Source: Nitrososphaeria archaeon
GTDB lineage: Archaea; Thermoproteota; Nitrososphaeria; JACIWG01
Length of the DNA stretch: 64,000 bases
Direction of reading: 5' to 3'
Assembly (NCBI GenBank): GCA_050011875.1
Contig: JBEKIG010000007.1
Coordinates: forward strand, 32,001 to 96,000
The notes under the pieces are model-generated. The model had not been told where the DNA came from. It saw nothing but the letters and a program-made list of their open reading frames with translations, and made no database searches. The translations under genes were made by a program, and so were the position numbers. Position 1 is the stretch's first letter; each line of letters begins with the position of its first letter. Positions 5,994 through 22,513 of this stretch are shown here, one piece after another.

Positions 5994-6176
5994 ATGTCTA
6001 AGAATTTCACAACAGGACAGACTTGGGGCGCCCTAAAGAAGGCGTGGAAAGGTTACAAGATTGCTAAAGTTCAGAGTGACAAAGCTAGAATGATGGAATA
6101 CGCTAAAAGGATAAGGACTTTACAAGAAGAACTAAAGGTAGAGAAAGCGAAGTTCCCAGACTTAAACCTGTACTAA
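5994..6176 (+). CDS. Small conserved hypothetical protein resembling a Thaumarchaeota-type family
   Basis: TTGQTWGALKKAWKGYKIAKVQ recalled from Nitrososphaerota hypothetical proteins; clean ORF followed by a T-rich tract. Confidence 0.7.
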   Translation: MSKNFTTGQTWGALKKAWKGYKIAKVQSDKARMMEYAKRIRTLQEELKVEKAKFPDLNLY

Positions 6177-6319
6177 GCTAAGCAAAGGGTGCCACCTCAC
6201 TTTTTCTTTTTGTCGCAGTAAGACAACTAATGTTATATTCTATAAAATGTATTATCGTGGAAAATATTTTTTTATTGTGAAAAAACTTAATTTAAAGGTT
6301 GTCAAGGAACCTTTATGAT

Positions 6320-6394
6320 GGGCTCGTGGCTCAGTTTGGATAGAGTACAGGCCCTCTAAGCCTGGGGTCGTGGGTTCAAATCCCACCGGGCCCG
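6320..6394 (+). tRNA. tRNA-Arg(TCT) with C at position 33
   Basis: GGGCTCG/CGGGCCC acceptor, anticodon arm CAGGC-CCTCTAA-GCCTG, GTGGG-TTCAAAT-CCCAC. Confidence 0.9.
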
Positions 6395-6771
6395 TTTTAC
6401 CACTTTGGGATAGATTGCTATTTGGAATGATATACATGAGAGAGGATTGAAGATTATTTAAAAGATGTCACCAATAGTTTTTGCTTTCTTAATCAGATCT
6501 ATTTTTGTGTACTTTGGTGCCCTTGAAGGCTGGATAAGGCATTCGACATATTTTCTACTTAATTTAAATAATAAGCCTATATAGAGTTTGCAGCCTCCCT
6601 AAAATGGAGACTCCTCCCCCGTTCATCACAGCGATAGGCATTTACAAAACTTCTCCTAATCTCAAGCTGGGAACTACATCCACCTAACATCAAACAAACT
6701 TTACCAAATTGGTTAATGTCAGGATTATAAAATATCGTTTTATAATATCATTTGATAATCTTGGCTAATTC

Positions 6772-6943
6772 CGGCTCAAACAGAAATTTGTATGCAAAAT
6801 TAGCGCTAATTTTCCGCTTGTCGGCTCAGACTGATCTCCCTGTGTACAATTTAACATCCCTTTGCTCTCATACCGGACGCATTTAAGTTGAGCCGGCAAA
6901 AACTGTTTGCGCTAACTTTTTTGCCGATTTTCTGTTTGAGCCG
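6772..6943. repeat. Non-coding symmetric element, copy 1
   Basis: 15-bp perfect outer IR CGGCTCAAACAGAAA (6772-6786/6929-6943); GGCTCA at 6773, 6823; TGAGCC at 6889, 6937; palindrome AAAATTAGCGCTAATTTT 6796-6813; homologous to 21560-21729. Confidence 0.85.
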
Positions 6944-7153
6944 AACATAGTTGCACCTGGTTAGTTCAACGTTGAACCTTAACAGATTCCGTAAAGGTTC
7001 TTTTATAGTGAACTTGACAAAAAATGCGTACATCAAAAAAGATAAAGAGAACATCAAAGGTTATACGTTCGATGAGAAGAAGGAATTAACCTAAGTACCT
7101 CCTTGGCTCTCCTCGTCGACACCCTAACTTTACCCTAAACCTATAAATTCTCT

Positions 7154-7220
7154 GATATCAAGCTTGATATCGGTCATGAAACAAATCCGGCGGCCCTTTG
7201 GCCCGCCGGAATCATGAAAC
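7154..7220. repeat. Palindrome/hairpin cluster
   Basis: Perfect 18-bp palindrome GATATCAAGCTTGATATC (7154-7171); hairpin TCCGGCGG-N9-CCGCCGGA (7186-7210) flanked by direct repeat TCATGAAAC. Confidence 0.75.
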
Positions 7221-7529
7221 GTCAAAACTCTAAAAAGATTACTTAATTTGTAAAGGTTGTTTATAACTACCCGCTTTCGGGCCCAGGAGCCGTTATCATA
7301 ATCGTCTTAGCGACCTCCTCAGGATCATGATTTTACGCTGGGGTTCAAGGTCGATTATATTGCTACGTCAAGAGCAATATGTTATGAACCACATTAAGAC
7401 AGAGAATTAAAATTTAATCTCATTTTAATCTGAAATCGAAGTGGTCTGTAACGTTAACATATAAACAGCTAATTGAGTGAAACCAGAAAATTTAAGTTCT
7501 TCAAACTATTCTTACAATTTAAGCGGTCA

Positions 7530-7828
7530 ATATAGAGAACATACGATTTGGCTTTTTCTATGAGCCCGGAAACGAAAATGAAGTGAAAATATTATTTGGC
7601 ACAGTCATACCTTATCTGGGTGAAGCCTTTGAGGAATTAGGACTTGGACAGTCCGAGTGGTATCTCGACGAGTTCTCTGATGGCGTTCCTGATTGTGTTC
7701 TCGTCATTGATGGAAAGAAAGTAGCGACTGAATTCGAGTTTGTGAGCTATAATTTCTATCAACACGGTCACGATCCAAAGAAGTGCGATTTAATAGTCTG
7801 CTGAAAACATACATGGTTGCATCGTTAA
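7530..7828 (+). pseudogene. PD-(D/E)XK restriction-endonuclease-like domain remnant
   Basis: YEPGNENEV...PDC...EFEFVSYNFYQHGHDPKKCDLIVC*KHTW; TGA at the position of the expected W in CDLIVCWxH. Confidence 0.7.
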
Positions 7829-7921
7829 AGATCCTTCGGAAGATGCCAGTTTAAGAATTGGTCTTGCTCATAAGAAAAGTTAATATCAGGTCGACATGTT
7901 CAAAGAATTAGCGGATAAGGT

Positions 7922-9067
7922 ATGACTGTTAAGAATATTGGAGTAGGAATGTTAGGTTACGCGTTTATGGGGAAAGCGCACTCTTATGCATTTAAGAATA
8001 TGCCTCTTTTCTTCTGGCCCCCTCCTGCGGTACCAGAGCTGGTTTCGATCTTTGGTAGAACGGATTCTAAAGTCGCGGAAGCCGCGCAAAACTTTGGGTT
8101 CAAAAAATATACAACCGATTGGCACGAGGTAATAGAGGATAAAGAAGTTGAAATTATCGATAACTGTCTTCCCAATGACATGCATCACGATATATCAATA
8201 GAAGCTATTGAAGCAGGCAAACATGTGATATGCGAGAAACCTCTTGCAATGAACAGTAGGCAGGCAAAGGAAATGTGGGATGTCGCAAGAAAGAACTCTG
8301 TAAAGTCTATGGTCGCTTTCAATTATAGATTTGTTCCAGCCGTTGGTCTAGCAAGGGAAATAGTAAGGTCAGAAAGACTGGGTAGGATCTACCATTTCAG
8401 GGCAAGATACCTTCAACAATGGCTTAGAAATCCTAACACTCCTCTAGTTTGGAGACTCGATAAAGAAAAGGCGGGAAGCGGACCTATAGGAGATCTTGGT
8501 AGCCACGTTTTTGACATCATTCGATTTGTAATGGGAGAAGTAAAAGCGGTTACAGCTATATCAAAGACGTTCGTCAAGGAAAGACCTTTGCCAACCGATA
8601 AAATGAAAAAGGGAAAGGTTTCTGTAGAAGATGCGTTTGAGTCCATCGTTGAGTTCGAGAATGGCGCAACAGGTACCGTTGAGGCATCGAGGATGGCAAC
8701 AGGGAGAAAGAATTATAATAACTTTGAGATCAATGGAGAAAAGGGTTCGATAGAATTCGATATGGAAAGGCTCAACGAACTTCGTTTCTATTCAGAAGAA
8801 GGTGATGTAAGTACGATTGGCTGGAATAATATTCTTGTGACAGAAAGCGTACACCCTTTCGTATCCCATTATTGGCCTTCGGGGCACGTAATCGGATGGG
8901 GAGATACATTCGTGAATGAGATATATCATTTTATGGACGTTGTAGTAAACGATAAAAGAGTCGATCCTATTGGTGCGACGTTCGAGGATGGCTACAAGAA
9001 TAATGTAATATTAGATGCTATCATACAATCTACGTTAACAGGTAAAAAAACACCTATAGTGTTCTAA
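7922..9067 (+). CDS. Gfo/Idh/MocA family sugar/inositol dehydrogenase
   Basis: GYAFMGKAH, CEKPLA, GDLGSH motifs. Confidence 0.9.
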   Translation: MTVKNIGVGMLGYAFMGKAHSYAFKNMPLFFWPPPAVPELVSIFGRTDSKVAEAAQNFGFKKYTTDWHEVIEDKEVEIIDNCLPNDMHHDISIEAIEAGKHVICEKPLAMNSRQAKEMWDVARKNSVKSMVAFNYRFVPAVGLAREIVRSERLGRIYHFRARYLQQWLRNPNTPLVWRLDKEKAGSGPIGDLGSHVFDIIRFVMGEVKAVTAISKTFVKERPLPTDKMKKGKVSVEDAFESIVEFENGATGTVEASRMATGRKNYNNFEINGEKGSIEFDMERLNELRFYSEEGDVSTIGWNNILVTESVHPFVSHYWPSGHVIGWGDTFVNEIYHFMDVVVNDKRVDPIGATFEDGYKNNVILDAIIQSTLTGKKTPIVF

Positions 9068-9128
9068 TGACGTAAACACTTTACGATAACGTATATTAAA
9101 TCGCAAAAAAATATGTTCTTAAAGGAGA

Positions 9129-11186
9129 ATGTTAAGTATGAATAAACTAGATAATTTATGCGTTAATACTCTACGCTTCCTATCGGTTGATGAAGTTGAG
9201 CAAGCTCATTCAGGTCACCCAGGGCTGCCCTTGGGGGCTGCACCCATGATGTACGTTTTGTGGGATCACTTCCTTCGTTTCAACAGCTCTAACCCTTTAT
9301 GGGTCAACAGAGACCGCTTTGTTCTATCTCCGGGACACGGTTGCGCATTACTCTACGCCCTATTACATGTATACGGTTATGATTTACCCTTAGAGGAGCT
9401 CAAAAGGTTCCGTCAATGGGGAAGTAAGACGCCAGGTCATCCAGAATATGGGCTTACGCCAGGCGTAGAAGCGACGACAGGTCCTCTAGGTCAAGGCTTT
9501 GCAAACGGCGTTGGGATGGCCATAGCAGAAAACTTCTTGTCAAGCTGTTTCAATATGCCTGACTATCCTGTAATTGATCACCGCACATACGTAATCTTAT
9601 CCGACGGAGATCTTATGGAAGGTATTGGTTCAGAGGCAGCTTCTTTAGCCGGCCTTTTACGCTTAGGTAAGCTCATCTGCCTTTACGATGACAACCACAT
9701 ATCCCTTGAAGGCCCAACAAGCCTAGCGTTTACAGAAAATGTGCAAGCCCGATTTGAGGCTTATGGCTGGTACGTCTTACAAGTCTCAGACGGTAACGAT
9801 CTTGAAAGTATAGAAAACGCTATCAGAATGGCTCAGGCTCAAAAAGATAAGCCCTCCCTAATTATAGTTCGTACCCACATAGGGTATGGAAGCCCAAGAC
9901 AGGACACAAAAGAGGCTCACGGCGAACCTTTAGGTCCAGAAGGCGCTATGGCGACCAAGAAAACCCTTGGATGGCCAGCCGAGCCTCTGTTCTACATTCC
10001 GGAAGAAGCTATGGATCACTTCAAAGAAACTGCCCAAAAGAAGATACAACATGAGAAAGACTGGAATAAACTAATGGAGGACTACGATCAAAAGTTCCCA
10101 GACCTAGCCGAACAATTATGGAAGGTGATAAGAGGCGAGCTACCCGATGACTGGAGAAGCTTCCTGCCTAGCTTTATGCCAGAAGAAGGCCCAATGGCAA
10201 CCCGCAACGCTTCTAACAAAGTTATGAATGTGCTATCTCAAAAACTACATTCTGCAGGGACTGCTCCACACCACTTCTTGGTTGGAGGCTCAGCGGATCT
10301 TTCACCATCCACTAAAACCATTCTATCAGGTTACGGAGACTTCGGTTTTGGCCAAGCATGTTCCCATAACATACATTTTGGGGTTCGCGAGCACGCCATG
10401 GCGGCTATCGCAAACGGAATGGCACTCCATAGCAAGTTTATCCCTTACACTGCAACATTCTTGATCTTCTCAGACTACATGCGCCCTGCCCTTCGCCTTT
10501 CAGCGCTCATGCAAACGCATGTTATTTTCATATTTACACACGACAGCATCGCCTTAGGCCAAGATGGCCCAACACACCAGCCAGTAGAGCATCTAATGAG
10601 CTTGCGAGCAATGCCGGGTATGACGGTCATACGACCAGCGGACGCAAACGAAACTTCTACAGCATGGCAAATCGCCATCGAACGCCGAGGTCCAGTTGCC
10701 TTGGTATTCACACGTCAAGAGCTTCCGATACTAGATCCTAAGCTTTATCCGATAGGAGAAGGAGTTCATAAAGGCGCCTACATCCTTTCAGAGCCCAAAG
10801 CAGCGATACCAGATATAATCCTTATAGCGACAGGATCAGAAGTTCATCTAGCCCTTGCATCTAGCCATGAATTGCAGAAAAAAGGAATTAAAACGCGTGT
10901 GGTTTCAATGCCTTCATGGGCTATTTTTGAAGAACAGCCAGTCGATTACAGACGATACGTTCTACCTCCCGATGTGCCCAAGTTAGCTATTGAAGCAGGC
11001 TCGACATTAGGTTGGTGCAAATACGTAGGCTACGACGGCGACATTATAGGCTTGGACCGATTTGGAGCCTCAGCTCCAGGAAACATTGTGTATGAACAGT
11101 TAGGTTTTAATGTACAAAACGTTGTCGAACACGCATTAAGATTATTAGACGAAATCGGTAAAACCAAAGTAGGTGATAAAAAATGA
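9129..11186 (+). CDS. tkt: Transketolase, full-length bacterial type
   Basis: [38 protein letters not shown]. Confidence 0.97.
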
Positions 11187-13957
11187 GTTCTTTAAAAAAA
11201 TTGCGTAATTATGGTCAGTCGTTCTGGATGGACTATATAAGACGAAGCCTTATAACAAGTGGGGAGCTGAAACACCTTGTAGAAGAAGACGGGTTAAGTG
11301 GTGTGACCAGTAATCCGACGATTTTCCAGAAAGCTATCGCCGGAAGCTTAGACTACGATGAAACGATAAGAAAGCTTCTCGCAGAATATCCCAATATTAA
11401 CGTACGAACATTGTTTGAGAAACTGTTGATCGAAGATATTCTGATGGTCGCAGACGTCCTGAGACCTGTCTACGATAGGACAGACGGCACAGATGGTTTT
11501 GTAAATATCGAACTGTCTCCTGAACTATCGCATGATACCAATGGAAGCATTATTGAAGCGCGTCGTTTATGGAAGGAAATTAACCGTCCAAATGTTATGA
11601 TAAAGGTTCCGGCTACGAATGAGGGAGTCCCTGCAATTGAAACACTGACAGCAGAGGGCATTAACGTGAACATCACCCTCATGTTCTCAATATCACAGTA
11701 CGAGTCTGTTGCTAACGCGTACATACGAGGATTAGAGCGCTGCACTAACCCTGAAAAAATATCTTCAGTGGCCTCATTCTTCTTAAGCCGCATCGATACA
11801 GTCGTCGATAAAAGGCTTGAAGAAATAGCTACATCCGAAGCTCTTGCGCTAAGGGGAAAAGCGGCTATTGTGACTGCGAAAATAGTCTACAGAAGGTTCC
11901 AAGAGATATTTAGTGGTGAACGCTGGGAAAAAATCTCACGAAGAGGAGCAAGAGTACAACGTGTTTTGTGGGCTAGTACAGGCACAAAGAATCCAACTTA
12001 TTCCAATGTCCACTACATCGAACCACTTATAGGCCCAAATACTATCAACACAATGCCGATTTCGACCTTCAACGCTTTCCGCGATCACGGGCATGTGAAA
12101 TCAACTATAGGTATAGGATTAGAAGAGGCAAAAGCTATATTTAAAAAATTAGGTGAACTGAAAATAGACTTGGATGCCGAAGCTGAGAAACTACAAGTGG
12201 ACGGCATTGCCGCGTTTACAGAATCGTACGAGGGACTGCTAAATACCTTAAAGGAGAAAACCTTAGCGATAACGCGAAAAATAGATTTGCACGAGTTAGA
12301 GCTTGGAAAATTCCAGGAGAAGGTAGATAGACGTCTAGAGCAATGGAATATGATCAATTTTATGAGGAGGATTTGGGCAAGGGATCCCACACTGTGGTCC
12401 TCTGAACCGATACCTGAGGTCTCAGACCGTTTGGGTTGGCTTACTTTGCCGGAGATTATGCACGACCAGATAAAAGATTTTACTTCATTCGCCGGAGAAG
12501 TAAAATCAGAAGGAACACGACATGTAGTTCTGCTGGGAATGGGAGGATCGAGCCTAGCTCCTGAGGTCTATCAGAACGTCTTCGGAAACAAAGACGGCTT
12601 CCCAAAGTTGATGGTCCTAGATAGCACACACCCATCAGCCATAAAAGATGTTGAGAAAAGGATTGTCTTACAGAAAACCCTGTTTTTGGTTTCAAGCAAA
12701 TCAGGAACTACAATGGAGACGCTCTCCCTCTTCTATTACTTCTGGAACAAAGTAAAAGGAGCAAACTCGAATGCGGGGCGACAATTTGTAGCAATCACGG
12801 ATCAAGGCACTTTCTTGGATAAAATGGCTAAGGAGCGGAATTTCCGCAAAATTTTTCGCGCACCTCTTGATGTGGGGGGAAGGTACTCCGCTTTAACAGC
12901 TTTCGGCCTTTTGCCGGCAGCGCTCATCGGTGTCGACATTCACAGCCTATTGGACGATGCTTGGACTATGTCTGAAAACTGTGCTTTCTGTGTGCCTGCC
13001 GATAAAGCATCCTGCTCCGTATTGGGCGCGGCTCTTGGAGAGTTGGCAAGAGAGGGCATGGATAAAGTAACTTTTATTACCTCGCCATCGATAAAGAGCT
13101 TCCCTGTATGGCTGGAACAGCTTATTGCTGAAAGCACGGGGAAGGATGGTAGAGGAATAATACCGATTGTTGATGAACCGTTAACTGACCTAAGAAACTA
13201 CGGTGAAGATCGATTCTTTGTCTTCTTTCTAAACAGGAGCGAAGGCCTTGAACCCCGAGAGCTGATGAGCAGGCTCGAAGCATCTGGACACCCCATAATA
13301 CGTATAGACTTGAACGGAAACGTCAACATATCTCAAGAAATCTTCTGCTGGGAGATGGCTGTCGCTTCGGCGGGGACCATTTTAGGCGTCAATCCCTTTA
13401 ATCAGCCCGATGTGCAGGGAGCAAAAGATCTTGCTAAAGAAATGATGGAGAAGGCGAAAAATGGGGAACTAGGTGACGCATATTCCTATGCTACATCAAT
13501 TCAGGACCTTGATTCCCTACTTAAAGCCTTAAAAGTTCTTCTTAGTCAGGCCAATAAAGGCGATTACGTTGCTATACAGGCATTCCTGCCAAGCTCTGAC
13601 GAAACTTCAAAAGCTCTTCAAAGGCTGCGTTCAGAAATCCTGAATAGATTACATCTGGCAACAATGTTGGGCTATGGCCCTAGGTATTTACATTCAACCG
13701 GCCAGCTTCATAAGGGTGGACCTAAAAGCGGAATATTTCTACAGATCGTAAACGAATACGATGACGACTTAGAGGTTCCGGAAACGGAATACACTTTTGG
13801 CACACTAATTCAAGCTCAAGCATTAGGCGAATATCAGACACTAAAGCGAATGGGACGAAGAATTTTGTGCGTCAACCTAAAAAAAGGTACTTTAGAAGGG
13901 CTTTTCAAATTGACTGAAATGATAGGCGAAGTCGACGTGCAAATCAAAAATGGGTGA
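11183..13957 (+). CDS. tal-pgi: Bifunctional transaldolase / glucose-6-phosphate isomerase fusion
   Basis: GVTSNPTIF and MIKVPAT (Tal), then [37 protein letters not shown] (Pgi). Confidence 0.95.
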
Positions 13958-13960
13958 TAA

Positions 13961-14872
13961 TTGATGGAATTAGGGGTTGTAGGACTTGGAAGAATGGGCT
14001 CAAATATAGCAGAGAGGCTTGTCCGCAGCGGATTCAGAGTTGTTGGTTACGCTCGACATGCAGAGACAGTTAATAGCGTTGTTGATAAAGGAATAGTTGG
14101 AGCCTACTCCTTAGAAGAGCTGGTGCAAAAATTGAATTTCCCACGTATCATCTGGATAATGATTCCAGCGGGAGAGTCGGTGGACACGGTCATCCAACGG
14201 CTGACTCCTATGCTATCTAAAGGAGATATTTTGGTGGACGGTGGAAACTCTAACTATAAAGATAGCATACGCAGGGCTTCGGAACTAAGTGAAGAAGGGA
14301 TCAATTTTGTAGACGTAGGAACCAGCGGCGGAATATGGGGAGCGCAAGAAGGTTATTGCATGATGGTAGGTGGACAAAAGGAAGTAGTTGAACATCTTAC
14401 CCCAATCTTTAAGGCTCTAGCGCCTGGGCCAGATAAAGGCTGGGGGCACGTGGGCCCAAACGGCGCAGGCCATTTCGTTAAAATGGTCCATAACGGTGTA
14501 GAATACGGGCTTATGGAAGCCTTCGGAGAAGGATTCACTATTCTTAAACAGAAAAAAGAGTTTAGCCTAGACCTTAAACAGGTGAGTGAAATCTGGCGCT
14601 ATGGTAGTGTAATAAGGTCATGGCTTCTTGACCTGATAGCTCTCGCACTGGCTGAAGACCAAGGCCTGAAAGACATCAAACCCTATGTAACAGATTCCGG
14701 GGAGGGGCGATGGACTGTATTTGAAGCCATAGAAGAGAATGTGTCAGCACCCGTAATAACTATTTCGCTGCTACAACGTCTTCGCTCTAGAGACAATGAG
14801 GACTTTACTGATAGATTAATAGCGATTATGCGTCAGCAGTTTGGTGGGCATGATGTCAAACGAAGTGAATAA
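13961..14872 (+). CDS. gnd: 6-phosphogluconate dehydrogenase, decarboxylating, short type
   Basis: GLGRMG, DGGNS, VKMVHNGVEY, DSGEGRWT, FGGH. Confidence 0.95.
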   Translation: MMELGVVGLGRMGSNIAERLVRSGFRVVGYARHAETVNSVVDKGIVGAYSLEELVQKLNFPRIIWIMIPAGESVDTVIQRLTPMLSKGDILVDGGNSNYKDSIRRASELSEEGINFVDVGTSGGIWGAQEGYCMMVGGQKEVVEHLTPIFKALAPGPDKGWGHVGPNGAGHFVKMVHNGVEYGLMEAFGEGFTILKQKKEFSLDLKQVSEIWRYGSVIRSWLLDLIALALAEDQGLKDIKPYVTDSGEGRWTVFEAIEENVSAPVITISLLQRLRSRDNEDFTDRLIAIMRQQFGGHDVKRSE

Positions 14873-16346
14873 GGGTTCAAGAACCTCGCTGGACCCACAT
14901 ATATTCGTAATTTTTGGGGCCACCGGTAACCTCACCCGTAGAAAGCTGTTTCCCGTCATTTACAACCTATCAGCGAAGGGCACGTTACAGAAAAAGAACA
15001 TCATACTAGGTGTAGCACACAAGCAGGATCAAAATGATCAAAGCTTTCGAATTGAGGGGCTAGAAGTTCTGAGAAACTCAGGTTTACCGACAGACGACAA
15101 ATTGTATCAGGAATGGTGCAATGAATGCCTCTACTACCAATCAATAGGAAAGGAAAGCATGGAAGACTTCGAAAAACTTGCTGTGCGGATAAAGGTTCTT
15201 GAGCAGGAAAGAAAAATCCCAGGTAACAGAATATTATATATGGCGATTCCTCCCGAATCTTTTTTGAGCACTATCGAGAACTTGGCGAAGGTCGGGCTTA
15301 ACACTAGTGAAGGATGGACCAGATTGGTTGTTGAGAAGCCTTTTGGAGTTAACCTTAGTTCAGCCCAAGAGTTAAATATAACACTCCATCGTCACTTCGA
15401 TGAATCACAGATATTTCGGATAGACCATTTCCTAGGCAAGGAAACAGTTCAAAACTTAATGGTGTTCCGTTTTGGAAACACACTGTTCGAAGAGCTTTGG
15501 AACCGTGAGCACATAGAAAGCGTGCAGATCACGGTCGCTGAAGAAGTAGGGATTGAGGGAAGAGCAAAGCTGTACGAGCAAGTCGGAGCATTAGGGGACA
15601 TCGTTCAAAACCATCTTGCACAAATCTTGACACTTGTAGCGATGGAGAACCCTGAACTTTATGAAACCGATGCAATTCGCTACGAAAAACTGAAAGTTCT
15701 GCGTCAGATCAGACCGATCAATCCCGAAGACGTGGTATTCGGGCAGTATACTCATGGAATAGTTGAAGGTCAAGAGGTAAAAGGTTACAGAGAAGAGACT
15801 GGCATCCCTCAGAACTCGCAGATGAATACGTTTGCTTGCATGAAGTTGGAGGTCGCCAACTGGCGTTGGAAAGGTGTCCCATTCTACATTCGAGCAGGTA
15901 AACGCTTACCTAGGAGACTTACAGAAGTGATGATCAGATTCCACGCTCCTCCGGTCTCTCTCTTCCGCTCCTTTGAATCGATTTCTTCCATAAAACCTAA
16001 CATACTAACTATAATCCTGCAGCCGGATGAAGGTTTTGAGCTTCAGTTTCAGGTGAAAATGGTTGGGTTTCCTGTCAACCTTTCAACTCAGAGATTGCAC
16101 TTCAGATACGCTGAATCATTTGGGCCTCTACCTGACGCCTACGAAAACCTTCTCCTTGAGATTGTAAGGGGAAATCAAACACATTTCGTAAACTCGGAGA
16201 TGGTTTTAGAATCTTGGAGGATCTTTGATCCCCTAATCCGAATGAGCATCCCGGTTTATCCCTATCCCGCAGGTACATGGGGGCCATCGGAGGCTGATGA
16301 ACTTTTAAGAAGATACAAAGAGACATGGGAAAACAGATTAGATTAG
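14850..16346 (+). CDS. zwf: Glucose-6-phosphate 1-dehydrogenase
   Basis: FGATGNL, VVEKPFG, RIDHFLGKE, DIVQNHL, RWKGVPFYIRAGK. Confidence 0.95.
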   Translation: MMSNEVNKGSRTSLDPHIFVIFGATGNLTRRKLFPVIYNLSAKGTLQKKNIILGVAHKQDQNDQSFRIEGLEVLRNSGLPTDDKLYQEWCNECLYYQSIGKESMEDFEKLAVRIKVLEQERKIPGNRILYMAIPPESFLSTIENLAKVGLNTSEGWTRLVVEKPFGVNLSSAQELNITLHRHFDESQIFRIDHFLGKETVQNLMVFRFGNTLFEELWNREHIESVQITVAEEVGIEGRAKLYEQVGALGDIVQNHLAQILTLVAMENPELYETDAIRYEKLKVLRQIRPINPEDVVFGQYTHGIVEGQEVKGYREETGIPQNSQMNTFACMKLEVANWRWKGVPFYIRAGKRLPRRLTEVMIRFHAPPVSLFRSFESISSIKPNILTIILQPDEGFELQFQVKMVGFPVNLSTQRLHFRYAESFGPLPDAYENLLLEIVRGNQTHFVNSEMVLESWRIFDPLIRMSIPVYPYPAGTWGPSEADELLRRYKETWENRLD

Positions 16347-16359
16347 ACTTTAACAGCTT

Positions 16360-17000
16360 CTTGTAGAACATGCGATCAAAGCGCAACTACGGCGTCTTCC
16401 AGTTCTTTTATCGCCTTGTCCACATCATCACTTTTAAAAATATAAAAGTCTGAAACAAAAACTTGAAGCTCCATAGTTTCTTGCTGGAGCAGTGTTACTA
16501 GGGTTTAAGCAGCCGTCAACTTCCAAAGGGATAGCGCAATCAACAGATCTGAGTCTTCTTATCTTTTCCAGATTTTTAGGAAGAAACTCCTCACAGTAAT
16601 TCCTAGGTTCACCGGTCATTATCCGTATGCCATCGACCATTTTTATATATGGCAAAACAACGTCGACTATTGTTGTATGCCTCAAAGATAGATAAATCTC
16701 TCTTCCACTATTCCTTAAATCATTTATGGAATATTCGACATTCTTCACCTATTCCGTGTGAACGATGGCGATATTAACTTACCAAACGTTCTTCTATATC
16801 CACTCCAAGGGTTTCCTGACCATCAAATGAGCCTCACAGTCAAGACTTTAAGTAAGCTTGAAATCGGATTGAAGCTAGACCTTGGGAACGAATTCGTCGT
16901 CAATTATATCATGTTGAACCCTCTTTATTTTATCAATAACTTGGTTCATCATCGAGCACAAGTATCTTTGTGCCTCTGCTATTATGGCTGGCAATACAAG
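16360..17000 (-). pseudogene. rpe: Ribulose-phosphate 3-epimerase remnant
   Basis: EAHLMVRKP, IMTGEP, LEVDGCLN recognisable, with several stops and frameshifts. Confidence 0.8.
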
Positions 17001-17088
17001 AGTTTCCGTTAGGCTTGCTTAGCCTCTGATCAAGAATATCTATTACTTTAGATCAAAAGAACACTGACGATGAGCGCAGGATAAGAGG

Positions 17089-17763
17089 TCACGCCTCTAT
17101 TACAATAGAACGAGTCTTAGCTCCAAGCTGTTTTAAAAGGTTCGTCATATCTTCGACAAAAGGGTCTGGTCCACAAACATAAAAGTTCTGTTTGAAGCCC
17201 TTAACCTTCTCTTTTAGAAAATCTCCATTTATCCTGCCACTTTCGTATCCTGCCCTTCTTTCTCTAGTCAGAGTAAAGATCAAGTTTTCACTGTTCTCTC
17301 GGAACAGTGTCCTTAATTCGTTTTCCAGAATTATGTCATCATAAGTTTTGTTCGAAGATATTAGGGTGTTTCCAGCTATCTCTCCGTCCTTCTTCAACCT
17401 CCTAAGTATCGCTATGAAAGGAGTGATCCCTGCGCCTCCGGCGATAAATACACCAGGACCTGCATACTGAATGGTTCCAAATGGCTCCCTTATTATCAAC
17501 TCTGACCCCGGCTCTAGTTTATGCAGTTGATCGGTTACACCTTTATGTTCAGGATACCTTTTAATGGTGAACTCGAGGACAAGGTCCTCGTTTAGAGAGG
17601 TGAAGGTGAACTCTCTAAGCTTTCTCGTCCATCCAGCTTTATTTATTGACATAAGTGTGGCTTGCCCTGGAATATAATGAAGTCCTTTTGGCTTCTCCAG
17701 AACAAACCTTTTAACATCATGTGTAACCTGCTCTGTCATAAGAATTTTTACAACCTGCCTCAT
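17089..17763 (-). CDS. FAD/NAD(P)-binding oxidoreductase (ferredoxin reductase-like)
   Basis: REFTFTS, IAGGAGITPF, YVCGP. Confidence 0.85.
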   Translation of the reverse strand: MRQVVKILMTEQVTHDVKRFVLEKPKGLHYIPGQATLMSINKAGWTRKLREFTFTSLNEDLVLEFTIKRYPEHKGVTDQLHKLEPGSELIIREPFGTIQYAGPGVFIAGGAGITPFIAILRRLKKDGEIAGNTLISSNKTYDDIILENELRTLFRENSENLIFTLTRERRAGYESGRINGDFLKEKVKGFKQNFYVCGPDPFVEDMTNLLKQLGAKTRSIVIEA

Positions 17764-18011
17764 AATTGAGTGAAGGTGTATTCTCGTTTAAAAATGTTTA
17801 TCTTGAAGGCCGCAAGAGATTTCACACAAAAAGATCACCATGGTCTTTCCATTGTTTGTTCTATACTTTGGCAGACCACACGACTCGTAGGCTTGAATAT
17901 CCTTTGAGTTTGTCGAGGTACTTGATAACGCTCACGATAAAGATAATATGAGATAATAATATAAGATGGCACGATTTTTATCGCAAATCAAGTCTTTAAT
18001 GTTTAAGACCG

Positions 18012-18785
18012 TCATTCTATGATCCTTCTAATCGTTACAGAGGCTATGGCCAAGAACAGTACAGTAAAGGCTACGAGGACTGCAATATCAACAAGAAGAT
18101 TGGAGTAGTCTCCCGTAAGAAGCATAGCTCTTACCGCGTCGACGACGTAACTCAGCGGGTTGAATTTTGATATGAACTGCAGCCAGCTGGGCATCAAAGA
18201 AATAGGGTAGATAGCGTTACTAGCGAAGAAAAGTGGCATTGTTATCGCCTGACCAATGCCCATCATACGATCACGAGTTTTAAGGAAGGAAGCAAGGATC
18301 ATCGATAAACTGGAGACGCACATGGCAAATACGACGATCACCGCAAGAACGCCCAATTCATCCAATGGATCGAACCTTAGGTTAACGCCGATTATCAGCG
18401 CTAGGGCGAAGATCATAACAGCCTGGAACAACCCTCTAACACTTGCCGACAACGCCTTCCCAACTATGATCGAAGACCGAGGCGAAGGTGTTGATAACAG
18501 CTTGCTAAGTATACCCGTGTCCCTCTCCCAGACAACAGTTATTCCATAGAAGATGGCTACGAACAGAACCGACTGAGCTAACACCCCCGGTGTAATAAAT
18601 TGAGTGTAGGTGAAATTTCCTATAAACTGAGTGATCCCTTTGATAGCACTAAACACTGTCCCGAACAACAGAAGCCAGAGGGCGGGTTGAACAAGACGTG
18701 TCCATAATTCTGTGGAGTCATGGCGTATCTTTCTAGCCTCCATCTCTGCTATAGTAAGCGAGCTACTAATGAATTCTCTGAACAT
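18012..18785 (-). CDS. ABC-2 type exporter permease (DrrB-like)
   Basis: Multiple TM helices, PLFFASNAIYP...NPLSY motif. Confidence 0.9.
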   Translation of the reverse strand: MFREFISSSLTIAEMEARKIRHDSTELWTRLVQPALWLLLFGTVFSAIKGITQFIGNFTYTQFITPGVLAQSVLFVAIFYGITVVWERDTGILSKLLSTPSPRSSIIVGKALSASVRGLFQAVMIFALALIIGVNLRFDPLDELGVLAVIVVFAMCVSSLSMILASFLKTRDRMMGIGQAITMPLFFASNAIYPISLMPSWLQFISKFNPLSYVVDAVRAMLLTGDYSNLLVDIAVLVAFTVLFLAIASVTIRRIIE

Positions 18786-18791
18786 GGTTTC

Positions 18792-19808
18792 TCAACCCCC
18801 ATGTCTCATGAAGCTCCGTCGAGTTTGGCGCGTCTGGCTAAGACTCTCTGCCTCTTCTATTCTGACTTTGGCGTATTTTAGGAATACATCATCTAAGCTC
18901 GGTTTATTCAAGGAAATAGCCTCCACATTAGACCCTTGGGACTCGAAAAATTCTACGATCCTCGGTATTGCTTCTTCCCCGCTATTGGTCAAAATATCGA
19001 CTATTCCTCCTGCGTTTCGGACAACCTTCCCTATCTCGGCCAGGAGCAAAGCACTATCAAAACTTCCGCCAAGCTTAACTGTGACCATGTCACCCCCCAC
19101 ACTCTTCTTCAATTCTCTTGAGGTGCCTGAGGCAACGAACTTTCCCTCGTTCATAATCACTATCCTACTGCACAGCTCGTCGGCTTCACTCATATCGTGG
19201 GTTGTAATAATTACTGTCATGTTGAATTCCTTGTTCAGATTTTTGATGTTCTCCCACACCTGTCTCTTAGAAGACGGATCTAGGCCTATACTCGGCTCAT
19301 CAAGGAATAATACGCGAGGTCTACTAACCACCGCCTCCGCAATCTCTAGCCTCCTCATCATACCACCCGAGTAGTGTTTGACCAAATCATTAGCCCTGTC
19401 GACGAGCCCCATCTGCTGAAGTGCTCGAGCAATCCTCTCATCCCTATCCTTCTTGCTTACATGGAACAGTTTAGAGAAGATTAGAAGGTTCTCGTAGCCC
19501 GTTAAATCGCCGTCAGCTGAAATAGCCTGCGGTACATAGCCCATCATTTGCCTTGCTTTTGTAGGTGAACCTAATGCATCGATTCCGCAGATCTTGATAG
19601 ATCCTGACGTAGTTCTTGTCAGCCCCATTATCATCTTAATAATCGTCGTCTTACCGGCGCCATTTGGCCCTAGGAGGCCGAAGATCTCTCCTTCTTGTAC
19701 CGAAAAATTCACATCATCGACAGCCCTGAAATTTGGTGGATAGATCTTAGTTAGGTCGACTACTTGTATGGCTGCATTTTGTTCAACTTGAGTGATGGGT
19801 TCCATCAA
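18792..19808 (-). CDS. ABC exporter ATP-binding protein (DrrA-like)
   Basis: GPNGAGKTT, YSGGM, LFLDEP, TTH. Confidence 0.92.
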   Translation of the reverse strand: MMEPITQVEQNAAIQVVDLTKIYPPNFRAVDDVNFSVQEGEIFGLLGPNGAGKTTIIKMIMGLTRTTSGSIKICGIDALGSPTKARQMMGYVPQAISADGDLTGYENLLIFSKLFHVSKKDRDERIARALQQMGLVDRANDLVKHYSGGMMRRLEIAEAVVSRPRVLFLDEPSIGLDPSSKRQVWENIKNLNKEFNMTVIITTHDMSEADELCSRIVIMNEGKFVASGTSRELKKSVGGDMVTVKLGGSFDSALLLAEIGKVVRNAGGIVDILTNSGEEAIPRIVEFFESQGSNVEAISLNKPSLDDVFLKYAKVRIEEAESLSQTRQTRRSFMRHGG

Positions 19809-19955
19809 ATGTGCACCATCACATTGTTTAATTAAAGATATGTATTTTTGATTAGATCTTCTATGCAGAGAATTTTCTTGAAGGATGGACCGTAGATAGA
19901 ATAGTACAGCTGACGGTCCTTCACTTAGAAAAATATTGCCTTCAAAGCATTAAAG

Positions 19956-20071
19956 CGGGCCCGGTGGGATTTGAACCCACGACCTACAGCTTAGGAGGCT
20001 GCCGCGCTATCCATTCTGCGCGGACGCCTACTGTTCATACAACAGCAGAACGCCCTCTGCGCTACGAGCCC
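19956..20071 (-). tRNA. tRNA-Arg(CCT) with 41-nt D-loop intron (20016-20056)
   Basis: Removing the insert gives a 75-nt cloverleaf with GCAGC-CTCCTAA-GCTGT; insert forms a hairpin with two GCGC-AGA bulge-helix-bulge halves. Confidence 0.9.
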
Positions 20072-21162
20072 AGGCCCAACATTAAACTGTCAAGAGGCGT
20101 TCTTTAAGCTTTTTTCTTAGATCATAGAAGTTGGTTTAGGATGTTCATTGTCTATCATTATGGTTTTTTGTGAGGCCTATTTGCTAATGATGAAAAAATT
20201 TTGGAAAGTCCATGACTAGTCAGCAAGTCTTCTATGCCTAATGATATGATCTTATGTTATTGGGTTATGCACTAGTAGGTAGCATTATGACTTAAAATTT
20301 GATATCAAGACTTGATGCTGATTGATTCCATTTTTTATTTTTAATAGTTAATTCCACTTTAGTCTACTTTAATCAAGATAAAGGTCTGTCTTAGATATCA
20401 TGTCAACGATTAAGTAAAGATTTATCGTGAATAAACATGTTGACGATTTTTTTCGTCACTAAACTGTTATTAATTAATCAAGGAATTCATTGATAGAAAA
20501 GCGTTCGACAACTAGCCTAACCAAGATCAGTGAATTGTTTAAGAACAGCTGCTCTTTACTGAATATACAGAGTTTCCTGATTATAACAAGCTTTTTTATT
20601 TTAAACCTGATTCGATCCTTCATGCTGACAAATCCGAAATCATATAACCTTTGTAACTAGTATCTCTTTATAGTATCCCTTTAGTATTCGTCCTAATGGC
20701 CCTTTAATAGATTCTTTTAATGCTTCTCTAAATTCTTCCCAGTGAGATTCCCATTCATAGCCCAACAAATTACAGGAACATAAGAAGCATGACCGTGCTT
20801 CTGGCGGAGTCATGCGAGGTAAAGCAAGGTAAGGTTCATAACCACATTAGGTTCTATATCGCGTTAGGAAGAAACTATAACTTCGCGATAATAAATGTCT
20901 ATACCAACAAACTTGAAGTAGGTTTCCCTTTGTAATCGCCTGAACAAGATTCTACATTATTCGTCTGGATTATAGGAGTTGGATGCGTAATCATACTTAT
21001 AGCTGAGATAATATACTTCTTGCTATCAGTAAGGGATTAAGAATACCCATTTCCTTTCAACTATTTCCCAAACTGGTAAACGGTTTTTAAGGTCGTTTCA
21101 AGGCCAAAATTACCTAAAAAAATAGTCAAAAAACATCATAAAAACATTTGATGAAACGAGTC

Positions 21163-21182
21163 TGGCACCGCGCGCGGTGCCA
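21163..21182. repeat. Perfect 20-bp GC-rich palindrome
   Basis: TGGCACCGCGCGCGGTGCCA in an AT-rich non-coding context. Confidence 0.8.
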
Positions 21183-21216
21183 TTTACTAATATGGTAAAC
21201 GTAAGGACACATAACT

Positions 21217-21490
21217 TCAGAGAATTTTTTTCTTGATCAAGTCGATTTTTAAGTTTTTTACTTCGTCTAAAGTGCCAGCTATGCTAACTTGTATCGCCTG
21301 CTGGTTGACGCACACTTCTTTGAACCTTCTGTCCTGGCTTTCCACTAAACTGGTGAGGGCGGCCTTTTGTTCGTTCATCGCCGCTAAAATCAGAAGCTGT
21401 GTCTCCCTGTCTGTTAGCTTTCCCTTAGCAATCACTCTCTTTATCAGGTCAACAGATTCAGGTGCAAGTATCCCTAACGCTGTTAAGAAT
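21217..21490 (-). pseudogene. Small coiled-coil hypothetical protein, 5' end unclear, possibly of mobile-element origin
   Basis: Frame stays open upstream of the called start (FLTALGILAPESVDLIKRVIAKGKLTDRETQLL...) and runs into the repeat element. Confidence 0.4.
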
Positions 21491-21528
21491 GTTTGGCGCG
21501 CTAACTTAAATAAAAATAAAAAATAGTT

Positions 21529-21761
21529 TGAGCCAAAAAAAATATTATAAATTTGGTTTGGCTCAACACGTTTTAAAACAAAATGCTAACGCCAACTATT
21601 TCCTATTGGCTCAACTTATTATCATTTTGCATGAGAGTGTGTTGATGTTTAATATTGCACAGGGGGATCATACTGAGCCAGTTTGCAGAATATTTAGCGT
21701 TAACATTTCCGATTTTTTTTGATTGAGCCAGAATTAAAAATCTTAAAAAAACTCCGGCTCA
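21529..21761. repeat. Non-coding symmetric element, copy 2 (inverted relative to copy 1)
   Basis: TGAGCC 21529, GGCTCA 21560, 21608, TGAGCC 21674, 21724, GGCTCA 21756; 60-bp core aligns ungapped to the reverse complement of 6829-6888. Confidence 0.85.
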
Positions 21762-22055
21762 AGATGTTATTTACGATGTTTGGTCTGTAAATGGTATACT
21801 AGTTAACATCAGAAACAGGTAGTGTTCACTCCCTTTTTTTCGGGTTAAAATGAACAAACATCAACAAGTATCCCCGTGTGAGTTTTGTTAATCTGGGATA
21901 TTTATAAAACTAAGCATTTTCAAATCTTAATATTTTTTGTCTGAGGCCTTTGCATACAAGCAATTTATCAAAGGTTGTTCTTGGCAGTGTCAATCATCTG
22001 TTTTGTTTTTTATAAAAAGAATTGAAAATGCTGGTATAACGTTAATTTTTTGGGT

Positions 22056-22283
22056 TTACCAAGCTTCAAGCAAGGTTTCTGTACTTCTTACACCATCTAG
22101 AAGGTGAACTCTTGCTATAACATCTAGTACATCGTCAAGGTCGTTCGTTTCTATGAACACAACCATGTCCACTCTACCGAAAGTTTGAAAAACTTTTTTG
22201 ATTCCTTTGATTTTACTTATTTGCTCTTGTATTGTGTTACCTTTAACAGGTACGGTCTTGACTAAGAGGCAGGCCTTAAGCAT
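22056..22283 (-). CDS. Stand-alone Lrp/AsnC ligand-binding (RAM) domain protein
   Basis: FGRVDMVV...GVRSTETL. Confidence 0.85.
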   Translation of the reverse strand: MLKACLLVKTVPVKGNTIQEQISKIKGIKKVFQTFGRVDMVVFIETNDLDDVLDVIARVHLLDGVRSTETLLEAW

Positions 22284-22513
22284 TAGTTCTCAATCTCCAC
22301 AAGGGTTTCGGTAAACACTACTCCGGCTATGTTACTGATCTTGATCACATTTCTACCAAGTTCCTTTCCGTTCGAGGTTATTAGGTGAACTACGACATCA
22401 TATCTTCCGAGAACAGGGTATGTGTCTACAACGGTTTCTATGCTCTTTATTCTTTCTATGACGTCTATGAATTTGCCCTTCTCAGTCCTTATCAATATAC
22501 ATGCATCTACCAT
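22283..22513 (-). CDS. Stand-alone Lrp/AsnC ligand-binding (RAM) domain protein
   Basis: MVDACILIR...LGRYDVVV...GVVFTETL; start taken at MVDAC. Confidence 0.85.
   Translation of the reverse strand: MVDACILIRTEKGKFIDVIERIKSIETVVDTYPVLGRYDVVVHLITSNGKELGRNVIKISNIAGVVFTETLVEIEN

Follow-up and report, generated by a model that had tools for sequence, protein, structure and literature searches.

What is the non-coding element that stands twice, in inverted orientation, in a contig of a Nitrososphaeria archaeon (contig JBEKIG010000007.1 of assembly GCA_050011875.1)? The window, by which we mean the whole stretch of 64,000 nucleotides analyzed here (positions 32,001 to 96,000 of the contig), carries two copies, c1 and c2, 14.6 kb apart. 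We refer to the window's own genome (2.64 Mb, 119 contigs) as G000 and to its sister genome, the only other species of the genus, as G009; labels such as C2, C10a, C4d and c3 denote further G000 copies. On the top strand of the element, which is the minus strand of the window for c1 and the plus strand for c2, both copies have the layout GGCTCA-N42-GGCTCA-N60-TGAGCC-N44-TGAGCC. The first-pass annotation of this DNA had reported an identical layout, and we confirmed it to the base. Its gap-free alignment of the two cores, with conserved blocks, also held on the c1 and c2 sequences, as did the smaller features it had listed: arm palindromes of the TTAGCGC/GCGCTAA type, extra outer motifs of c2 (TGAGCC at 21529-21534 and GGCTCA at 21756-21761), a degenerate motif beside c1 (GTTCAACGTTGAAC at 6964-6977), and a tRNA-Arg gene near each copy. 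By chance 0.02 occurrences of the arm pattern GGCTCA-N40..52-GGCTCA would be expected in the window; there are 4, and none of 100 shuffles had 4 or more. We lean towards reading the element as a hairpin that acts in cis for an undescribed mobile module, with the majority of copies now relics or blocks copied passively, because the family is real, lineage-specific, in flux, marked by hallmarks of mobile DNA, and paired through compensatory change. The family, its distribution, its pairing, the turnover of its loci and the company it keeps were observed directly; the use to which a cell or a mobile element might put it is a matter of weighing several readings.

The element belongs to a dispersed family that is restricted to one genus of uncultured peat archaea. 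Using nhmmer with a profile of the first four copies, we found in G000 15 full-length copies and a short partial match, besides two truncated copies on contig C22; a covariance model found 8 full copies in G009. Further copies with preserved spacing thus exist in both genomes. The homology of c1 and c2 stands, but their status as a pair does not, since they are 2 of at least 17 copies in G000. The covariance model found no copy in 8 other genomes of the family and order, and in a sample of 151 genomes of the class, scored with stricter filters, the element was present in 2 and in none of the 149 others. For wider scans we used an IUPAC pattern satisfied by all 16 aligned copies; records of the window's own genome may be omitted from these scans. 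The pattern matched no stretch in viral contigs and 5 in 185,579 species genomes. Of these, 4 come from a single set of records with the title Nitrososphaeria archaeon; the other belongs to a Bacteroidales record and has no covariance-model match. Metagenome contigs gave 11 stretches, all from one metagenome, and 13 model matches whose bit scores equal those of G000 copies, so that no new sequence was added. Two exact-pattern matches in another genus (genomes G004 and G005) lie at an apparent coding-region end, had no model match and were dropped as chance. The first-pass annotation had recognized no ORB, dif, CRISPR or IS end here, and Rfam has no matching family: only tRNAs reached the gathering score, and nothing better than E = 2 touched the elements. 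Nor did we find a description of this element in the literature that we searched, supplementary tables aside.

Within G000, hairpin motifs built on the hexamer GGCTCA occur only at copies of the element. Two pairs of copies stand in tandem, C4a/b 535 bp apart and C4c/d 584 bp apart, with no open reading frame (ORF) enclosed. The two truncated copies (C22:1985-2141 and C22:3184-3288) are separated by 1.1 kb. Missing from one is everything between the core and the outer-right hairpin, both included; missing from the other is the part that runs from the outer-left hairpin to the core end.

The geometry of the family is rigid. Over a 190-position model, the 23 full copies of the two genomes measure 190 nt in 19 cases, 191 in 2, 189 in 1 and 188 in 1, while pairwise identity ranges from 51 to 94% (median, 61%; 172 columns). 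This bears out the earlier proposal that the geometry is under selection and does not reflect recent duplication. Among 16 measured copies the 5′ arm is always 54 nt and the 3′ arm 56 nt, once 57. Conservation by column is highest in the hexamers (1.4 to 1.75 bits), followed by the 60-nt core (1.3 bits), which holds the invariant blocks UG.AUGAGAG ... C.C.G.GG.AU, and by the arms (1.05 to 1.1 bits). The copies fall into two subfamilies, each present in both genomes. Subfamily A comprises c1, C6, C4c, C4d, C10b and most G009 copies; subfamily B comprises c2, c3, C2, C10a, C11b, C14, C15, C16, C4a and C4b, and adds on each side an outer TGAGCC...GGCTCA hairpin that subfamily A lacks.

Several other accounts of the element were discarded. 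No conserved reading frame runs through the element across copies; a frame is open through subfamily B copies, but it has no start codon, and subfamily A differs. A promoter within the core was considered on the strength of a TATA-like AATATT, which is not conserved across copies. An invertible switch, in which the core flips between the arms, is contradicted by the arms, which are not swapped between subfamilies (left-left 11.7 and right-right 10.2, against left-right 5.9 and right-left 8.2), and by the 54/56-nt asymmetry, whose polarity does not vary among the 16 copies examined. A tRNA-like fold of the 72-nt inner unit was rejected too, as neither a tRNA call nor an Rfam tRNA match covers the elements.

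The arms pair with each other, and the pairing is maintained by compensatory change. RNAalifold places three long-range helices, formed by the outer heptamer, the arm centers and the inner hexamer. In an alignment of the 23 copies fitted to the covariance model, standard pairs fill 90.0% of pair cells, compared with 78.7% after shuffling, and none of 500 shuffles reached the observed value; the structure was derived from the same related sequences, so these pairing figures are not probabilities. Covariation, which the first-pass annotation had proposed to test, is present between the arms. When the partners are slid by 1 to 3 columns, standard pairs fall to 29 to 42%. Both sides have changed in 21 of the 36 pairs and, in helix 3, in 12 of 13, and the covariation score is 0.411 against 0.225. 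A structure-blind MAFFT alignment of 16 copies gave the same picture (91.8% against 81.2% shuffled, 0/500). Individual copies illustrate the change: C4c, C4d and C10b have TGCTCA or TGTTCA, with TGAGCA or TGAACA as the partner, and in C4b the inner pair alone has changed, to AGCTCA/GAGCT. The arm centers read TTAGCGC/GCGCTAA, TATCGATA/TATCGATA or TAACGC/GCGTTA. An arm scores 16 against its own partner and 11 to 14 against the partner arms of other copies of its subfamily. Across the 23 copies, the top strand has 70 G·U or U·G cells and 26 A·C or C·A cells; G·U exceeds A·C in 18 copies, the reverse holds in 4, and 1 is equal. This excess points to a single folding strand, RNA or single-stranded DNA. 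Folded on its own, c1 does far better than its shuffles on both strands (z of -5.6 and -5.7).

Covariation with many compensatory pairs, and an excess of G·U on one strand, would also fit a structured non-coding RNA gene family of ~170 to 290 nt, transcribed from the top strand and encoded by the host or by a mobile element, whose helices and 60-nt loop make up the functional RNA. The length strictly kept at 51 to 94% identity agrees with such a family, as do the conserved loop motifs UGCAUGAGAG ... GGGGGAUC and, in subfamily B, an A/T-rich stretch just upstream of the outer-left hairpin. We nevertheless hold this reading to be doubtful. Rfam has no match, no promoter-like motif stands at a fixed distance upstream on the top strand, and the two clear motifs of promoter type face outward. 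A run of T is a termination signal in archaeal transcription, and the T8 run of subfamily B lies inside the 3′ arm, ahead of the closure of the outer helix. The same heptamer recurs in all three helices, which suggests recognition by a protein, unlike free covariation. Finally, copies are not retained at orthologous sites.

The loss and gain of copies between the two species is extensive. G009 keeps the gene order around c1 and c2 on one contig and has neither copy; unrelated sequence stands in place of each (Table 1). The 1.1 kb that replaces c2 contains an ORF that we take to encode an Hsp20-like protein. The C15 copy lies within a clean presence/absence difference of 929 bp, and the G009 sequence is uninterrupted across the site. 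Around C10a and C16, and on one side of C11b, the DNA has no syntenic counterpart in G009. Three of the eight G009 copies stand where G000 also has a copy (the c3, C4c/d and C6 sites); the other five do not. Even the shared places differ: the c3 site has different subfamilies in the two genomes, and half of the G009 copy at the C6 site has been replaced. The family is lineage-specific and in flux, and its company includes hallmarks of mobile DNA.

Beyond its 170 nt, the repeat extends into the flanks and is mosaic. A right-flank motif, TTAACCAATTTGGTAAAG, is common to nearly all copies, and ~240 nt more of the right flank is common to six (c1, C2, C10a, C14, C4c and C10b). On the left side, subfamily A has an inverted counterpart of this motif, followed by a TATA-like box. 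In a comparison by eye with the AAAAG-N-TTTAAA-like regions upstream of tRNA genes, both flank motifs look like promoters directed outward. In c1, C2, C10a and C14 the right flank contains, ~110 to 150 nt from the element, a diverged fragment of tRNA-Arg(CCT); its similarity to tRNA is weak by itself (local scores of 20 to 33, against 14 to 21 for the other orientation). The outermost ~60 to 85 nt of the right flank, module M, also adjoins an intact orphan 3′ fragment of tRNA-Arg(CCT) at G000:C8:29207-29254. About eight subfamily B copies have a left module of 400 to 600 bp, which encodes a 72-aa ORFan reading away from the element. The gene has remained whole at c2, C10a, C11b and C16; C4a has a shortened form, and the versions at C2, C14, C15 and C22 are broken or truncated. 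Four database proteins match its product, all of 72 aa; it has no Pfam or PHROG family, and the protein is predicted to be one long helix (pLDDT 93). At C10a and one G009 copy the left module also encodes an acidic ORFan of 148 to 186 aa, convergent with the 72-aa gene, which is matched by seven database proteins, has no Pfam or PHROG family and gave a poor model (186 aa, pLDDT 57). The flank modules occur almost exclusively beside copies of the element.

Copies are enriched near tRNA-Arg genes. Four of the 14 loci are within 2 kb of a tRNA gene (random mean, 0.87; probability of at least four, ~0.009), and at three of them the tRNA is tRNA-Arg: TCT 378 bp from c1, a second TCT 231 bp from C4d, and CCT 1.5 kb from c2. 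The fourth locus is C15, 1.6 kb from a tRNA-Ala gene. Seen from the other side, three of the six tRNA-Arg genes in G000 are no more than 1.5 kb from a copy, and in G009 one copy is 617 bp from tRNA-Arg(CCG). G000 also contains orphan 3′ fragments of tRNA-Arg: 48 nt at C8:29207-29254, 39 nt at C4:128891-128929, 39 nt at C15:31716-31754, which is 2.1 kb after the intact tRNA-Arg at C15:29548-29623, and 37 nt at C2:158885-158921. These fragments are likely scars of integrase-mediated insertion. Together, the enrichment and the orphan fragments make plausible the link, suggested by the first-pass annotation, to undescribed integrative or mobile DNA near tRNA-Arg genes. In a separate observation, a 24-nt tRNA-Arg match (C1:39667-39690) is followed, 100 bp on, by an ORF homologous (38% identity) to the integrase-like one of a G009 island described below. 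The tRNA-Arg(CCT) gene near c2 has a non-canonical intron, a ~45-nt insert in the D-arm region; its G009 orthologue (L052:315-390) is an intron-less tRNA-Arg(CCT). ARAGORN misses this gene when run without introns and calls a tRNA-His when run with them, a call that we take to be an artefact of intron placement.

These flanks and neighbors bear on a further reading, in which the element is a protein-binding array on duplex DNA, either an attP-type accessory arm with the crossover in the tRNA-Arg-like segment or a divergent-promoter operator, with GGCTCA as the binding site. We consider it unlikely. The hexamers are indeed the best conserved columns and are exactly spaced, outward promoter-like motifs flank them on both sides, and the diverged tRNA-Arg(CCT) fragment and the enrichment beside tRNA-Arg genes are as an accessory arm would have them. 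But such an array needs no complementarity of the arms between the hexamers, yet in helix 3 both sides have changed in 12 of 13 pairs, and an excess of G·T over A·C is unexpected in duplex DNA. The start-to-start spacings of the hexamers, 48, 66 and 50 bp, would not correspond to whole helical turns, and most copies have no integrase beside them. The purely double-stranded multi-protein site that the first-pass annotation had inferred likewise leaves the complementarity between hexamers unexplained. Gene conversion between arms could mimic covariation, so these points only weaken the duplex array.

The cis-acting hairpin of a mobile module, the reading we prefer, can be put more concretely. 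One strand would fold into a long three-helix hairpin, with GGCUCAA/UUGAGCC as the outer helix, the arm centers in the middle and GGCUCA/UGAGCC as the inner helix, closed by the conserved asymmetric 60-nt loop; the 3′ arm would always be 2 nt longer than the 5′ arm. The mobile module would consist of the 148- to 186-aa acidic ORFan, the 72-aa single-helix ORFan, the palindrome, and a flank with a tRNA-Arg-derived remnant, and would ride on integrated elements and islands of these archaea. A protein might read the repeated GGCTCA(A) motif at the feet of the helices. The active form would be single-stranded, either single-stranded DNA during replication or recombination or an RNA, and its role may be in replication priming, as an origin, or in recombination of the mobile element. 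The window copies c1 and c2 would be among the relics or passively copied blocks in strain-specific DNA. A bolder version is possible, and we offer it tentatively: that this is a new archaeal single-strand hairpin site, or its RNA, with three GGCUCAA/UUGAGCC-heptamer helices in a fixed 54/60/56-nt geometry, used by undescribed tRNA-Arg-targeting thaumarchaeal mobile elements as an origin, primer site or recombination substrate and read by a protein without a known family.

A number of results weigh against the mobile-module hairpin. The near absence of indels fits it least: at 40 to 50% divergence it is beyond what is expected of decaying relics, could mean a function at the level of the host, and keeps the RNA family and the duplex array alive. 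Most copies have neither an integrase nor a tRNA nearby. We identified no mobilizing enzyme for the element: the Y1_Tnp search gave one full match per genome, beside TnpB genes in an IS200/IS605-type unit whose hairpins are unrelated to the element. No excised or circular form was seen. The C15 junctions have no inverted termini and at most 2 to 3 bp repeated (AT or ATG), and the final ~50 bp of the 929-bp insert is unique to that copy. Because those last ~50 bp are not shared, insertion, recombinational transfer and deletion in G009 are equally possible there. The evidence for one strand is also uneven: counted by columns, the G·U excess is weak (16 against 13), and the bottom strand of c2 folds better (z of -4.79) than its top strand (z of -2.12).

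DNA of the organism is present in peat metagenome runs, and no RNA run turned up for positions 20800-22300. Contigs of four DNA runs, compared with positions 6000-22500, gave no informative inversion or excision joint, as the joints they have are explained by tRNA-to-tRNA or repeat similarity. In each of three DNA runs, one contig joins 6786 to 6883 and skips 96 nt within c1, which could be an assembly-graph jump over the inverted arms or a core-less variant. The IS200/IS605-type unit of G000 (C4:1-3900) has the order tnpB, tnpA (Y1, 136 aa), tnpB, with CCCAC...GTGGG hairpins in front; degenerate repeats resembling TTTCC(C)TAA fill a long stretch between the first tnpB and tnpA (1570-1850). 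Searches for the families Rep_1, Y2_Tnp and Viral_Rep found nothing, in the control genomes either, and are therefore uninformative.

How does the element compare with known systems? By analogy, it appears to work most like the large palindromic repeats (MITEs [miniature inverted-repeat transposable elements], ERIC, REPIN/BIME) and the hairpin cis-sites of integrating archaeal elements, while by its features it falls outside MITEs, REP-RAYT systems, integron attC sites and any Rfam family. Integron attC sites have the form RYYYAAC ... GTTRRRY (R″ and R′), with L boxes a few nucleotides inside and a length of ~57 to 141 nt. Set beside attC sites and the ends of IS200/IS605 elements, the element is similar in that one strand seems to matter and the paired feet carry a conserved short motif. 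The subfamily B sequence GCTCAAC fits the R″ consensus, and the constant asymmetry of the 54- and 56-nt arms is comparable to extrahelical bases. Unlike attC, however, the element is 170 to 290 nt long, its motif helices are 54 nt apart, whereas the R and L boxes of attC are a few nucleotides apart, and its 3′ partner is ATTGAGC or TTTGAGC, not GTTRRRY. We saw no integron integrase, attI or array of ORF-plus-site cassettes; for the integrase this rests on generic PF00589 matches, no intI-specific model having been run. As at IS200/IS605-type ends, the subfamily B hairpins at both ends share a stem. PATE elements derived from IS200/IS605 have similar subterminal hairpins at both ends on one strand, neither terminal inverted repeats nor a target-site duplication, and a cognate TnpA. 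Here the one clean junction has no terminal inverted repeats and at most 2 to 3 bp repeated, but subfamily A has no outer hairpins, and the TnpA-linked hairpins differ, no matching TnpA having been found.

Large palindromic intergenic repeats and MITEs include ERIC/IRU, Correia and SM1-SM4 of Sulfolobus. The element resembles them in being a whole unit that forms an imperfect palindrome or long hairpin, in having truncated and tandem copies, and in varying in presence among close relatives. It is also non-coding, multicopy, intergenic and lineage-specific, as such repeats are (reviews PMC10969869 and PMC3184786). Unlike MITEs, it has internal inverted arms, with no terminal inverted repeats at the one clean junction, where the duplication is of 2 to 3 bp at most (the other sites being block replacements), and no parent insertion sequence with the same ends was found. 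It differs further in its asymmetric, conserved 60-nt core, in the near lack of indels at 51 to 94% identity, and in that the block differing between genomes is 0.9 to 1.3 kb and includes small ORFs. With REP/BIME and REPIN-RAYT systems (PMC2817692) it shares a short motif in alternating orientation, a mosaic arrangement with other modules, and hairpin doublets. REP units measure 20 to 40 nt and form inverted doublets that flank a RAYT gene; in contrast, a heptamer is the motif here, placed where the 50-nt arms have their feet, and there are 8 to 17 copies per genome, where REP sequences have hundreds. The sole Y1 transposase is part of an IS605-type unit, and the hairpins of that unit are unrelated.

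Rolling-circle plasmids, which have single-strand origins, form another class for comparison. A specific archaeal case is the SNJ2 origin hairpin recognized by Rep-Arvir (PMC13107129): it is a conserved, structure-dependent hairpin that serves an integrating mobile element in cis, follows small genes of that element on their downstream side, and has copies in integrated elements, all of which the present element resembles. Unlike it, our copies have no Rep gene of a known family beside them in Pfam scans of the neighbors, the dedicated Rep searches having had silent controls, and at 22 nt, as given there, the SNJ2 hairpin is far smaller. Thaumarchaeal integrated elements, according to the relevant part of PMC6563490, mostly target tRNA genes and often carry restriction-modification (R-M) genes. 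The likeness to these cryptic elements lies in tRNA-adjacent integration, short att sites, R-M cargo and many ORFans; unlike them, most copies here have lost any integrase. The words MITE and tRNA-Arg are absent from the text available for that source, and its relevant passages describe no such palindromic repeat. In an attP of an integrative element that targets tRNA genes, the core is identical to part of a tRNA gene, element DNA lies to either side, and an integrase is encoded close by. As for such features, c1, C2, C10a and C14 have the diverged tRNA-Arg(CCT) fragment together with module M, and an integrase is near only two copies, at 2.9 and 7 kb.

The first-pass annotation had also suggested that the two window copies flank a pentose-phosphate cargo or mark an origin of replication. 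That c1 and c2 are the functional ends of one integrative element carrying these genes, or origin markers, is highly improbable. The copies are inverted and 14.6 kb apart, and both tRNA-Arg genes, transketolase, transaldolase-PGI, 6PGD and G6PD lie between or near them. Against this, there are 23 full copies in two genomes, the subfamilies of c1 and c2 differ, the flanking genes stand together on one G009 contig that has neither copy, and c2 is outside the segment bounded by the two tRNA-Arg genes. An archaeal chromosomal origin has origin recognition box (ORB) repeats, an unwinding element and an adjacent orc1/cdc6 gene, and there are one to few per genome. Seventeen copies do not fit such an origin. 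Among the co-occurring genes that the first-pass annotation had named, an integrase was found near two copies; Orc1/Cdc6, terminase and ParB are absent among the 50 neighboring ORFs scanned against Pfam.

Separately, the last 29 nt at the 3′ end are identical in the two convergent tRNA-Arg genes of the window, which enclose a 13.5-kb segment (6396-19956) with genes for a GFO/IDH/MocA oxidoreductase, transketolase, a transaldolase-PGI fusion, 6PGD, G6PD, a flavin reductase-like protein and an ABC-2 transporter. Within it, 7.4 kb (9117-16503) match only ~3.5 kb in G009, and part of this oxidative pentose-phosphate cluster may be strain-specific. The c1 block encodes a 73-aa ORF at 7583-7804 on the plus strand, without a Pfam or PHROG match; its D...ExK-like stretch PDCVLVIDGKKVATEFEF might be a nuclease-like motif.

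The genes near copies are varied and include a hydrolase, PhzF, TBP, a transporter, a nitroreductase, an acyl-CoA synthetase and others. Four copies lie 220 to 430 bp upstream of type IIG R-M genes or their remains, in the same direction (Table 1). One G009 copy is 7 kb inside a G009-specific island that starts right after tRNA-Lys; the island begins with a 466-aa ORF matching a PHROG integrase family (E = 1.3e-8) and also has an Eco57I-like gene. In G000, the DNA around C16 that has no syntenic G009 counterpart starts with a tyrosine recombinase gene, 2.9 kb from the copy. Another G009 copy has a broken integrase gene 5.3 kb away; this gene belongs to an element lying beyond a tRNA-Cys and is probably unrelated. 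Two other dispersed repeats were seen. Members of the first, ~190 to 275 bp long and 87 to 97% identical, often have a copy of the palindromic element less than 1 kb away; the second, ~430 bp and 86 to 89% identical, occurs at L014:844-1278 (G000:C15:58685-59119) and in at least seven other places in G000 and G009.

Table 1. Features of the two window copies and of related sites (window positions unless a genome and contig are given; a dot marks features without strand)
Feature	Position	Strand	Remarks
tRNA-Arg(TCT)	6319-6395	+	convergent with c1
Module M of the c1 right flank	6529-6589	-	outermost part of the flank
c1 block	6529-7813	.	1285 bp; G009 has an unrelated 384 bp instead
Diverged tRNA-Arg(CCT) 3′ part, c1 right flank	6590-6632	+	also in C2, C10a and C14
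Right-flank motif TTAACCAATTTGGTAAAG of c1	6699-6716	-	resembles the BRE/TATA region (B recognition element and TATA box) of G000 tRNA promoters; points away from the element
c1, palindromic element	6773-6942	-	subfamily A; 170 nt; covariance model, 175 bits
c1 3′ arm (element orientation)	6828-6773	-	56 nt
c1 core	6888-6829	-	60 nt
c1 5′ arm	6942-6889	-	54 nt
Left-flank inverted counterpart CCTTAACAGATTCCGTAAAGG, then TATA-like TTCTTTTATAG	6977-7008	+	points away from c1
tRNA-Arg(CCT) with non-canonical intron	19957-20075	-	
c2 block	20076-22005	.	~1.9 kb: c2, left module and right flank; G009 has an unrelated 1.1 kb instead
72-aa ORFan	21217-21435	-	GTG start; reads away from c2
Outer-left hairpin of c2, TGAGCC...GGCTCA	21529-21565	+	3′ hexamer common with the main element; typical of subfamily B
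c2, palindromic element	21560-21729	+	subfamily B; 170 nt; covariance model, 199 bits
c2 5′ arm	21560-21613	+	54 nt
c2 core	21614-21673	+	60 nt
c2 3′ arm	21674-21729	+	56 nt
Outer-right hairpin of c2, TGAGCC...GGCTCA	21724-21761	+	5′ hexamer common with the main element
Gene downstream of C10a			Eco57I-like type IIG R-M
Gene downstream of C2			truncated paralogue of the C10a R-M gene
Downstream of C11b			HSDR_N and TaqI_C fragments
Gene downstream of a G009 copy			Eco57I-like, 1081 aa, 25% identical to the C10a enzyme
First additional repeat (~190 to 275 bp)	G000:C4:255318-255593; G000:C15:60529-60716; G000:C14:120-294; G000:C10:124-297; G000:C4:206000-206204; G009:C3:93861-94047		

The element is, then, an interspersed hairpin repeat or a mobile-element cis-site with an unusually rigid geometry. 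Its host lineage, the non-ammonia-oxidizing Nitrososphaeria of soil and peat, has no cultures and no genetic tools, and its mobile elements are barely described. A geometry kept to the base through 50% divergence makes the flexible genome of this lineage easy to mark. The element may be an origin or serve in priming or recombination, each a concrete and testable possibility, and it could become a part for a vector. It also offers a clean case for asking whether archaeal hairpin repeats act as DNA or as RNA. Should it be only a selfish repeat, it would still explain why these genomes have gene-poor, strain-specific stretches and contig breaks.

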